The notes beneath the pieces are model-generated. The model was not told where the DNA came from, searched no databases, and saw only the letters and a program-made list of their open reading frames with translations. The translations under genes were made by a program, and so were the position numbers. Positions 56,362-61,556 of a DNA stretch of 64,000 nt are shown here, one piece after another. The stretch lies in the NCBI RefSeq assembly GCF_053078305.1, contig NZ_CP166879.1; one strand, 5' to 3'. How positions within the stretch are numbered: the stretch's first letter is position 1; each line of letters begins with the position of its first letter.

Positions 56362-56464
56362 TTCCCCTTAATCCAGCAAAGATAAAAGCCAACCTTAAGA
56401 ACTTAAGGTTGGCTTAATTTTGCTTTGCGAGCATATGCGCACTTTGTTCGATGGAAACACCGTG

Positions 56465-58782: not shown

Positions 58783-59874
58783 ATGCGTTTTCTGCGCCGA
58801 CCAATATCGCTGCGCCAACGGCTGATATTGACCATCGGGGCCATTTTGTTGGTGTTTGAGCTGATCAGCGTCTTCTGGCTATGGCATGAAAGTACCGAGC
58901 AGATTCAGCTGTTTGAGCAGGCGCTACGCGACAATCGCAACAACGATCGCCACATCATGCGTGAGATCCGCGAGGCGGTCGCCAGCCTGATTGTCCCCGG
59001 CGTCTTTATGGTCAGCCTGACGCTATTTATCTGCTATCAGGCGGTACGCCGCATCACCCGCCCGCTGGCGGAGCTGCAAAAAGAGCTGGAAGCGCGCACC
59101 GCCGACAACTTAACGCCCATTGCCATTCACAGCGCCACCCTCGAAATCGAAGCGGTGGTTTCGGCGTTGAACGATCTGGTCAGTCGCCTGACCAGCACGC
59201 TGGATAACGAAAGGTTGTTTACCGCTGACGTCGCGCACGAACTGCGAACGCCACTGGCGGGGGTGCGTTTGCATCTGGAACTGCTGGAGAAAACGCATCA
59301 CATTGATGTAGCACCGTTAGTGGCACGGCTTGATCAGATGATGGAGAGCGTCTCCCAGCTGCTGCAACTGGCGCGTGCCGGACAGTCATTTTCTTCCGGT
59401 AATTATCAACATGTAAAACTGCTGGAAGATGTCATTCTCCCCTCGTATGACGAACTCAGTACCATGCTCGACCAGCGCCAGCAAACCCTGCTATTGCCAG
59501 AGAGCGCCGCCGACATCACCGTTCAGGGTGATGCAACCCTGCTGCGGATGTTATTGCGAAACCTGGTAGAAAACGCCCATCGTTACAGCCCGCAAGGCAG
59601 CAACATTATGATTAAGCTGCAAGAAGATGGCGGAGCGGTCATGGCAGTTGAAGATGAAGGACCAGGTATTGATGAGAGTAAATGCGGGGAGTTGAGTAAA
59701 GCGTTTGTACGAATGGACAGCCGTTATGGCGGGATTGGTCTGGGGTTAAGTATTGTCAGCCGCATTACACAGTTGCATCACGGGCAGTTTTTCCTGCAAA
59801 ACCGGCAAGAGACTTCTGGCACGCGCGCCTGGATACGGCTGAAGAAAGATCAGTACGTGGCAAACCAGATATAA
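58783..59874 (+). CDS. basS: Sensor kinase BasS (PmrB)
   Basis: 363 aa from MRFLRRPISLRQRLILTIGAILLVFELISVFWLWHES... (TTG at 58774 is an alternative start). Confidence 0.9.
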   Translation: MRFLRRPISLRQRLILTIGAILLVFELISVFWLWHESTEQIQLFEQALRDNRNNDRHIMREIREAVASLIVPGVFMVSLTLFICYQAVRRITRPLAELQKELEARTADNLTPIAIHSATLEIEAVVSALNDLVSRLTSTLDNERLFTADVAHELRTPLAGVRLHLELLEKTHHIDVAPLVARLDQMMESVSQLLQLARAGQSFSSGNYQHVKLLEDVILPSYDELSTMLDQRQQTLLLPESAADITVQGDATLLRMLLRNLVENAHRYSPQGSNIMIKLQEDGGAVMAVEDEGPGIDESKCGELSKAFVRMDSRYGGIGLGLSIVSRITQLHHGQFFLQNRQETSGTRAWIRLKKDQYVANQI

Positions 59875-59939
59875 AGAAAGCTGCTGACCACCAGCACGCT
59901 GAACACGGTAGTTAAACTTTCATAAACACGGTTTTTCAT
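59850..59939 (-). CDS. pmrR: Small membrane peptide PmrR
   Basis: 29 aa MKNRVYESLTTVFSVLVVSSFLYIWFATY with GGAGGAGAG Shine-Dalgarno; 3' end overlaps the basS 3' end antisense; found by manual translation. Confidence 0.8.
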   Translation of the reverse strand: MKNRVYESLTTVFSVLVVSSFLYIWFATY

Positions 59940-59941
59940 TG

Positions 59942-59968
59942 CACTCTCCTCCGTTAACCTGGAGGAGA
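59942..59968. terminator. Hairpin between basS and proP (also contains the pmrR Shine-Dalgarno)
   Basis: ctctcctcc gttaacc tggaggagag inverted repeat. Confidence 0.5.
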
Positions 59969-60053
59969 GTATGCGCGTCAGAGATTAAGTGAACCTTAAG
60001 AGTTCAATTGTTGGTCTGATAAGACAGCGTCACATCAGGCCATCCGTTTCAGC

Positions 60054-61556
60054 TTATTCATCAATTCGCGGATGTTGCTGCACCAGGCGGGTACGTTTCG
60101 CCTGCAAATCGGCAATCTCGTGGTCAATATCATCGATTTTCTGCTCGATATTATCGTAATGCTCGACGAGAATTTCCTTCGCTTCCTGTATATCTGACGC
60201 CGCCGGTGTTGCACCTTTCAACGGACGATTTGCCGTCTCTTTCATGGTTATGCCGGTGATTAAACCAACCACCGCCACTACCATCAGGTAATAGGCTGGC
60301 ATCATCAGATTCTGCGAGCTTTCGACCAGCCAGGCCGCCAGTGTTGGCGTCAGACCGGCAACCAGCACCGAAATATTAAATGCCGCCGCCAGCGCGCTGT
60401 AACGGATATGCGTCGGGAACATCGCTGGCAAGGTAGAAGCCATAACGCCCGTAAAGCAGTTAAGGATCACCGCCAGCATCAGTAACCCGGCAAAAATCAG
60501 ACCGATGACGTTACTGTTAATCAGAATAAACGCCGGGATCGCCAACACAAACAGGGCAACACTACCAAGTAGCACAAACGGACGACGGCCAAAACGGTCA
60601 CTCAGCAAGCCCATCACCGGCTGGACAAACAGCATACCGATCATAATGGCGATAATAATCAGCACCCCGTGGTCTTCGGAGTAATGCAGGTTATGCGACA
60701 AATAACTCGGCATATAGGTCAGCAACATGTAGTAAGTCACGTTGGTGGCAATTACCAGACCAATACATGTCAACAGGCTGCGCCAGTATTTAGTGGCAAT
60801 CTCTTTAAACGAGACTTTCGGGCCATCCTGCAAACCTTCGCGGTCGCCCTGTTCCAGTTTATCGACATGCTGCTGGAACGCCGGAGTCTCTTCCAGCGCA
60901 TGGCGCAGGTAAAGCCCGATAATCCCTAACGGCAGAGCGATAAAGAACGGAATACGCCAGCCCCAGTCGAGGAAGTTCTCTTCGCCGACAATGGTCGAAA
61001 TTAACACCACTACGCCAGCTCCCAGCACAAACCCGGCAATAGAACCGAAGTCCAGCCAGCTGCCCATAAAGCCACGTTTACGGTCAGGGGAGTATTCCGC
61101 AACAAATATCGACGCCCCGGTATATTCACCGCCGACCGAGAAACCTTGTGCCATCTTACAGATCAACAGCAGAATCGGTGCCCAAATACCAATCGTGTCG
61201 TAGGACGGTATTAAGCCAATACAGAACGTACTGATCGACATAATCACAATAGTGATAGCGAGGATCTTCTGGCGACCATATTTATCGCCCAACATACCAA
61301 AGAAGAGTCCGCCAAGCGGTCGAATCAGAAAGGGAACGGAGAACGTGGCAAGTGCAGCAACCATCTGCACGCTGGGGTCAGCCCCCGGGAAAAAAACTTT
61401 ACCTAATGCGTAAGCAACAAAACCATAAACACCAAAATCGAACCATTCCATTGCATTACCCAGTGATGCTGCGGTAATGGCTTTCCGCAGTTTACCGTCA
61501 TCAATAATGGTGACATCACGAAGGGTAATTGGTTTTACTTTTTTCCTTTTCAGCAT
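60054..61556 (-). CDS. proP: Proline/glycine-betaine:H+ symporter (osmosensory MFS transporter)
   Basis: 500 aa from MLKRKKVKPITLRDVTIIDDGKLRKAITAASLGNAMEWFDFGVYGF... to C-terminal coiled coil ...LQAKRTRLVQQHPRIDE. Confidence 0.95.
   Translation of the reverse strand: MLKRKKVKPITLRDVTIIDDGKLRKAITAASLGNAMEWFDFGVYGFVAYALGKVFFPGADPSVQMVAALATFSVPFLIRPLGGLFFGMLGDKYGRQKILAITIVIMSISTFCIGLIPSYDTIGIWAPILLLICKMAQGFSVGGEYTGASIFVAEYSPDRKRGFMGSWLDFGSIAGFVLGAGVVVLISTIVGEENFLDWGWRIPFFIALPLGIIGLYLRHALEETPAFQQHVDKLEQGDREGLQDGPKVSFKEIATKYWRSLLTCIGLVIATNVTYYMLLTYMPSYLSHNLHYSEDHGVLIIIAIMIGMLFVQPVMGLLSDRFGRRPFVLLGSVALFVLAIPAFILINSNVIGLIFAGLLMLAVILNCFTGVMASTLPAMFPTHIRYSALAAAFNISVLVAGLTPTLAAWLVESSQNLMMPAYYLMVVAVVGLITGITMKETANRPLKGATPAASDIQEAKEILVEHYDNIEQKIDDIDHEIADLQAKRTRLVQQHPRIDE

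Follow-up and report, generated by a model that had tools for sequence, protein, structure and literature searches.

The window analysed in this work, a stretch of 64,000 nucleotides from contig NZ_CP166879.1 (RefSeq assembly GCF_053078305.1), contains the eptA-basR-basS / pmrR / proP locus of E. coli. The RefSeq annotation lists pmrB, pmrR and proP at this place, and pmrR bears its name in E. coli K-12 and in thousands of RefSeq genomes. The sensor kinase gene basS (pmrB) was located by its open reading frame and the RefSeq annotation at 58783-59874 on the plus strand, and it runs towards pmrR, which occupies 59850-59939 on the minus strand and encodes 29 amino acids followed by a stop codon. 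The product, a small membrane peptide modulating LpxT, reads MKNRVYESLTTVFSVLVVSSFLYIWFATY (translation of the open reading frame from 59939 to 59850, minus strand). It matches the NCBIfam profile NF033224 ("LpxT activity modulator PmrR") over residues 1-29 of 29 with 74.2 bits at a cut-off of 30, and this full-length match, together with a promoter that has a PmrA box and with its convergence on pmrB, identifies it as a member of the family. Upstream of pmrR and in the same orientation stands proP (60054-61556, minus strand, open reading frame and RefSeq); its end at 61556 was taken from the length of the K-12 gene, and the open frame continues to 61589.

The gene is the PmrR gene known from Salmonella and E. 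coli (Kato et al. 2012 and later work): the PmrA box is identical, and the overlap with pmrB/basS is likewise 25 nt long (PMC8129183, PMC8004244, PMC11429745). According to the literature PmrR binds and inhibits LpxT, and it sets the balance between phosphorylation by LpxT and phosphoethanolamine decoration of lipid A. Polymyxin and bile-salt resistance are affected by the peptide (PMC8129183). It is membrane-bound, it is translated and needed in low Mg2+ and it is harmful if expressed without stress (Vellappan et al. 2025, PMC11429745); growth is impaired by loss of PmrR and by its unscheduled expression alike (PMC11429745). For E. coli the gene, its PmrA box and the pmrB overlap have already been published, along with a pmrR-null strain constructed by deletion of the PmrA box (Tian et al. 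2021, PMC8129183), and the 90-bp open reading frame with its 25-bp overlap was also described by Xu et al. 2021 (PMC8004244).

A preliminary description of the window, made from the sequence alone, had placed a 29-residue pmrR frame on the minus strand and had let its last 25 nucleotides overlap the end of basS. This was borne out: since basS ends at 59874, the tail-to-tail overlap of the two coding sequences covers 59850-59874 on both strands, in agreement with the published descriptions (PMC8004244, PMC8129183). The pair pmrR-basS is listed as a convergent excludon by ExcludonFinder (PMC12288877), and it shares with convergent excludons the arrangement of convergent, overlapping units; it differs from them in that the length of the overlap is not conserved and that one regulator induces both genes. 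Mutual exclusion is here a candidate function only. The conservation was followed in a genome scan based on BasS, which gave 80 loci from 80 species. As in the window, 56 of the 80 loci have a hydrophobic open reading frame of 28-33 amino acids tail-to-tail with pmrB, and these 56 together with the window form the comparative set of 57 Enterobacteriaceae species used below. The tail-to-tail arrangement is conserved throughout, with a spacing that ranges from a gap of 8 nt to an overlap of 57 nt; the coding sequences overlap in 36 of the 57 species and do not in the other 21. Judged from this comparison, the overlap length of 25 nt has no evident significance of its own.

The scan also revealed open reading frames for PmrR-like peptides of 30 amino acids, with a PmrA box and a hairpin at the Shine-Dalgarno sequence, between a uvrB-like gene and pmrB (loci L010-L065, e.g. 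L025:3550-3642, L026:3568-3660 and L047:3579-3671) in Klebsiella, Raoultella, Kosakonia, Kluyvera, Phytobacter, Pseudocitrobacter and other genera. The tested examples gave either no hit to NF033224 or 17-20 bits, short of its cut-off, and such genes may go unannotated for this reason. Within the pmrR frame of the window the terminator scan recognized a terminator-like stem, UGCUGGUGGUCAGCA, followed by the U-rich tail GCUUUCUUUA (59882-59896, minus strand). It stands about 30 nt ahead of the pmrR stop codon and is present in some Escherichia only; besides this stem no candidate pmrR terminator antisense to basS was found.

Immediately upstream of pmrR there is a perfect inverted repeat of 10 bp, composed of ACTCTCCTCC at 59943-59952 and GGAGGAGAGT at 59961-59970, with a loop of 8 nt and with six G-C pairs among the ten. 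Repeat search and folding indicated that the arm at 59952 to 59943 on the minus strand is the Shine-Dalgarno sequence, GGAGGAGAGU in the RNA (GGAGGAGAGT as DNA), which ends 3 nt ahead of the ATG. The loop, AGGUUAAC, occupies 59953-59960 and the opposite, anti-Shine-Dalgarno arm, ACUCUCCUCC, occupies 59961-59970, both on the minus strand; the pmrR mRNA thus reads 5'-ACUCUCCUCC-AGGUUAAC-GGAGGAGAGU-GCA-AUG over this region. Of 5,409 E. coli records, 4,834 match the 76 nt around the hairpin with an identity of 99% or more. The stem-loop of 34 nt folds with -19.4 kcal/mol, compared with -6.9 +/- 2.4 kcal/mol for its shuffled versions (z = -5.3), the stem persists when the whole RNA of 214 nt from the proP stop codon to pmrR is folded, and the Shine-Dalgarno sequence is fully paired in the predicted fold of any RNA that holds both arms.

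An intrinsic terminator has such a stable, G+C-rich stem-loop, and a bidirectional one stands likewise between convergent genes; the pmrR hairpin lacks the flanking U-tract or A-tract on either strand. The sequence following the stem is GCAAUGAAAAAC on the minus strand and AUGCGCGUCAGA on the plus strand, no U-tract was found in either, and the terminator scan made no call here. The intrinsic terminator was rejected because of the missing U-tract. With these data the preliminary description can be corrected. It had rightly recognized the ribosome-binding site as one arm of an inverted repeat downstream of proP (the hairpin is situated 84 nt past the proP stop codon, 60054-60056), although the repeat was given as 9 bp at 59942-59968, while it is perfect over 10 bp with borders shifted by 1-2 nt, and what it called the right arm is, in plus-strand coordinates, the left one and, in the mRNA, the 3' one. 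It had further suggested that termination and translation are coupled: the translational half agrees with the pairing of the Shine-Dalgarno sequence and with the compensatory changes presented below, whereas the half concerning termination found no support, there being no run of T or U and no call by the scan.

The comparison of the 57 upstream regions showed that the helix is retained while its sequence changes, the two arms being for example ACUCUCCUCC/GGAGGAGAGU, CACUGUCCUCA/UGAGGAUAGUG, ACUCUCCUGA/UCAGGAGAGU or ACUGCCUUC/GGAGGGCAGU. In the uncorrected MAFFT alignment of these species, which are not independent of one another, pairing is found in 82.8% of the helix cells, and sliding the partners lowers this to 37-55%; sliding likewise brings the covariation score from 0.32 down to 0.17 or less. 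Changes on both sides of a pair were counted in 61 cells, as compared with 23.8 in shuffles, a value which none of 500 shuffles reached; the alignment pair 42-63, for example, occurs as CG, AU, GC and GU. These pair counts are conservative, since MAFFT placed five Phytobacter-type sequences out of the helix register. A palindrome arisen by chance and without function is an extremely improbable explanation: a purine-rich Shine-Dalgarno sequence and a pyrimidine-rich discriminator can pair by composition, and nothing further speaks for it, while the covariation in 57 species and the z-score of -5.3 speak against it, as does the frequency of perfect 10-bp hairpins, of which 0.7 are expected on average in a dinucleotide-shuffled 64-kb window and about 12 sites are found in the real one. 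Judging from the compensatory substitutions, the structure of the hairpin is under selection.

Two simpler roles of the palindrome were also considered. A stem of 10 bp at -19 kcal/mol is far too stable for melting at physiological temperature, and an RNA thermometer or other labile switch was therefore set aside. A protein-binding palindrome was dropped as well, because the arm sequences differ between genera and it is their complementarity that is kept.

The promoter of pmrR overlaps this hairpin, a central point that had escaped the preliminary description. The PmrA/BasR box, CTTAAGGTTCACTTAAT, was identified by motif and alignment at 59984-60000 (minus strand), 44 nt before the ATG, and consists of two direct hexamer repeats 5 nt apart; its deletion in E. 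coli results in a pmrR-null phenotype (PMC8129183). PmrA boxes overlap the -35 element in a PhoB-type arrangement (PMC4660055). In the comparative set the strict form of the box precedes most of the small open reading frames, its start being located 58-63 nt before the ATG. Invariance in all 57 species is confined to the TTAA cores of the box, a single G of the Shine-Dalgarno sequence, the TG of the start codon, and the positions A59972 and T59968. The last two define the -10 hexamer CATACT (59968-59973, minus strand), which begins 10 nt after the box and in which they take positions 2 and 6, that is -11A and -7T; no other -10-like hexamer was found between the box and the stem. The same geometry is seen at the eptA promoter of the window and of six other loci, where the box is followed, after 10 nt, by GAgcAT or GAGGAT. 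From the repeat and the 57-species alignment it follows that the 5' arm of the hairpin is made of the last three bases of the -10 hexamer and the discriminator of a PmrA-dependent promoter.

Because the -10 hexamer overlaps the 5' arm, the PmrA-driven start is predicted near A59960, inside the loop. Most species have a pyrimidine-purine step 6-8 nt past -7T, which is C59961/A59960 here and which in Klebsiella-type sequences is a CA exactly at the junction of arm and loop; the implied leader would have 18-24 nt across the species and about 21 nt in the window. With a start in the loop the regulated pmrR mRNA would therefore have no anti-Shine-Dalgarno arm, and from the geometry of the promoter alone it is most likely that this mRNA begins inside the hairpin and escapes the pairing. 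For the Shine-Dalgarno sequence the calculated mean unpaired probability rises from 0.09 in the long RNA to 0.34 in the short one, and the short RNA has the higher value in 53 of the 57 species. In the short RNA it is predicted to be only partly open, owing to pairing with sequence beyond the stop codon; this long-range pairing was set aside since the fold is no better than that of shuffles (z = -1.3).

Two further observations concern the promoters. Two Escherichia loci (L002:3568-3696 and L005:3568-3696) have a single-base change in the spacer, GACGCG being replaced by GATGTG or GATGCG, which creates an upstream in-frame ATG and an extended frame of 42 amino acids; the extension probably has no consequence, being upstream of the predicted start site. 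At 56386-56418, 25 nt past the adiC stop codon, there is an inverted repeat of 13-14 bp, AAGCCAACCTTAAG/CTTAAGGTTGGCTT, with -20.3 kcal/mol and followed by AATTTTGCTTTG, which is terminator-like on both strands according to the scan. The PmrA box of the eptA promoter (56402-56418) forms the 3' arm of this repeat, and thus a second PmrA-dependent promoter of the window is interlocked with an RNA hairpin.

Two kinds of RNA only are able to hold both arms of the pmrR hairpin: RNA reading in from upstream on the pmrR strand, and RNA in the basS sense. The stem may act in the latter, as a structure that forms or stabilises the 3' end of the eptA-basRS operon, the masking of the Shine-Dalgarno sequence being incidental; we consider this unlikely. 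The plus-strand stem-loop is nearly equal in stability (-18.9 kcal/mol), and in the experiments of Xu et al. 2021 a basS construct ending at +86 nt (59960), with the stem cut short, lowered basS mRNA about 315-fold and conferred no colistin resistance, one ending at +103 nt (59977), with the stem complete, gave partial resistance and one ending at +126 nt (60000) full resistance (PMC8004244). These truncations are confounded with the expression of pmrR, since +103 regains the -10 hexamer and +126 regains the PmrA box: the step from 103 to 126 corresponds to the exact inclusion of the box (59984-60000). Moreover, the half-life of the mRNA was unchanged in the same study (PMC8004244), the stem is not followed by a U-tract on the plus strand, and in several genera the true terminator of the basS direction is found beyond the box.

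The comparison of the two strands is also relevant to this question. In 39 of the 57 species the pmrR-sense stem is the more stable one, in 17 the basS-sense stem, and the helix contains 50 G:U cells as against 36 A:C cells. Each G:U pair of the pmrR-sense RNA becomes a C·A mismatch in the basS-sense RNA, and the antisense stem is weakened in this way in several genera, where it has -2.6 to -8.9 kcal/mol as compared with -9 to -15 kcal/mol in the sense direction (e.g. -2.6 against -9.3 and -4.8 against -11.1 kcal/mol). The strand preference for the pmrR sense that these figures suggest is modest.

Transcription of pmrR might alternatively start upstream of 59970. In this case the hairpin would be part of the primary transcript, where it would repress or tune translation or stabilise the mRNA; some factor or condition would then open it. 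The complete pairing of the Shine-Dalgarno sequence whenever both arms are present is in line with such a start, and so is the Rfam family RF02052 (STnc630), which matches the window over its full length at 59843-60008 on the minus strand (181.8 bits, gathering threshold 55). Its consensus structure already contains the pmrR hairpin and thereby puts it inside an RNA; it is also through this consensus only that the hairpin of Salmonella, a genus not among the 80 scanned loci, was visible. As originally defined, STnc630 spans the entire intergenic region between proP and basS in Salmonella, to which 27 reads from Hfq co-immunoprecipitation map, likewise in line with an upstream start; its northern result is entered in the defining paper as "nd", without a signal (PMC2515195). 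The coordinates are thus those of the intergenic region and not mapped RNA ends, and for this reason, and as the region encodes PmrR, a discrete small RNA with defined ends was rejected; STnc630 is best read as the promoter and mRNA of pmrR. The invariant A and T furthermore set the -10 at 59973 to 59968, where it overlaps the arm, with no other -10 between box and stem. With a stem of -19 kcal/mol, besides, the regulated mRNA could hardly be translated, but translation of PmrR does occur in low Mg2+. A start upstream of 59970 accordingly appears improbable to us.

The other source of an RNA with both arms is the gene upstream of pmrR. This gene is co-directional with pmrR in at least 52 of the 54 loci with a readable neighbour, a count that refers to the orientation of genes and not to RNA. 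It is proP in Escherichia and Citrobacter and, in most other genera, a gene of about 675 amino acids which we take to be UvrB-like. In some loci its end is just 55-63 nt before the pmrR ATG, which leaves no space for a terminator, and in the window the scan found no canonical terminator between proP and pmrR. The 3' region of proP contains an imperfect, REP-like palindrome (60012-60045, minus strand; -12 kcal/mol) without a U-tract, at the edge of which the window has 3 nt more than K-12 (AGACCAACAATT versus AGGCCAATT).

It was also considered, following the idea of termination in the preliminary description, whether the stem is chiefly a 3' structure of this upstream gene, proP or uvrB, either as a barrier to exonucleases or as a stop site assisted by collision or by Rho. 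The stem is the first strong structure past the stop codon where the gap is 55-63 nt, and proP has no canonical terminator in the window; still, we regard this as quite improbable, because the stem has no U-tract and its constant use of the Shine-Dalgarno sequence would be left unexplained. In addition, loci that already have a canonical terminator ahead of the box have retained the stem. In K. pneumoniae, Kosakonia and Pseudocitrobacter a canonical bidirectional terminator adjoins the PmrA box and the Shine-Dalgarno hairpin is still present; such G+C-rich terminators were located at L025:3701-3723, L047:3731-3754, L049:3730-3753, L013:3728-3758 and L055:3650-3681, and in the pmrR sense the T-rich sequence of the box serves as their tail. 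A role at the 3' end of the upstream gene and a gate on the translation of pmrR are, however, mutually compatible. The sole locus with a divergent neighbour, about 440 nt away, is that of Pantoea sp. A4 (L058:3490-3660), which is also, as a single case, the sole locus with a PmrA box and without the Shine-Dalgarno hairpin.

The arrangement resembles a control known from transposons. Fold-back inhibition of transposase mRNA, which gives protection from external promoters, was reportedly described for IS10 (Tn10) by Davis, Simons and Kleckner in 1985, and for IS50 (Tn5) it is said to have been described by Krebs, Schulz and Reznikoff between 1986 and 1991. In both elements an inverted repeat sequesters by pairing the ribosome-binding site of those transcripts alone that start outside, and the own promoter of the transposase gene starts within the repeat, hence the native mRNA is without the inhibitory arm. 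At pmrR, too, the Shine-Dalgarno sequence is paired with an upstream complementary segment and a co-directional neighbour is present; the -10 overlaps the upstream arm, and the start near 59960 is predicted from geometry. The differences are that pmrR is a chromosomal, regulator-dependent gene of a small peptide and not a transposase gene, that its mechanism is deduced, and that, unlike in IS10 and IS50, its anti-Shine-Dalgarno arm is the -10 and discriminator of an activator-dependent promoter.

We therefore propose that the hairpin is a gate on translation which depends on the start site of the RNA and which insulates pmrR from outside transcription, and we consider the proposal about evenly balanced between right and wrong. 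From the observed hairpin with its covariation, the positions of the Shine-Dalgarno sequence, of the box and of the -10, and the shared orientation with the upstream gene, we infer the start site, the read-through RNA and its amount, and the block of translation. Phosphorylated PmrA would bind the box at 60000 to 59984 and recruit RNA polymerase to the -10 at 59973 to 59968, and transcription would start at about A59960 in the loop. The resulting leader of about 21 nt would contain the Shine-Dalgarno sequence without its complement, and PmrR would be translated. RNA entering from proP or from the uvrB-like gene would carry both arms: here the stem of -19 kcal/mol would bury the Shine-Dalgarno sequence, 3 nt from the AUG, and no PmrR would be made. 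In this manner the synthesis of PmrR would depend on PmrA activity and would not respond to osmotic or SOS induction of the neighbour. Such a tight control is plausible, since PmrR is harmful without stress and needed in low Mg2+ (PMC11429745).

In a broader sense, it may be suggested that across the Enterobacteriaceae the discriminator of this promoter has evolved as the anti-Shine-Dalgarno sequence of its own gene, that the identity of the promoter decides whether the transcript can be translated, and that this is a conserved, chromosomal counterpart of the fold-back inhibition of transposons; we hold this tentatively, with slightly less than even confidence. The locus itself is well known, and apart from such a gate the finding would be a matter of ordinary annotation; the element added here, a conserved hairpin whose upstream arm is inside the gene's own promoter, is modestly new. 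Neither the Shine-Dalgarno hairpin as a translational element nor the location of its arm in the promoter is described in the three papers compared (PMC8129183, PMC8004244, PMC11429745).

If the proposed gate is true, it would explain the strict control by PmrA of a tiny gene which stands 55-115 nt behind an unrelated, strongly regulated gene. The effect of the "pmrB 3'-downstream region" on colistin resistance (PMC8004244) could then be reinterpreted, as +86 falls in the loop, +103 just past the -10 and +126 at the end of the PmrA box. The locus would furthermore be a simple example of an anti-Shine-Dalgarno logic embedded in a promoter, which could be searched for at other small open reading frames in 3' regions, and a potent membrane regulator of 29 amino acids would be insulated from the transcription of its neighbour.
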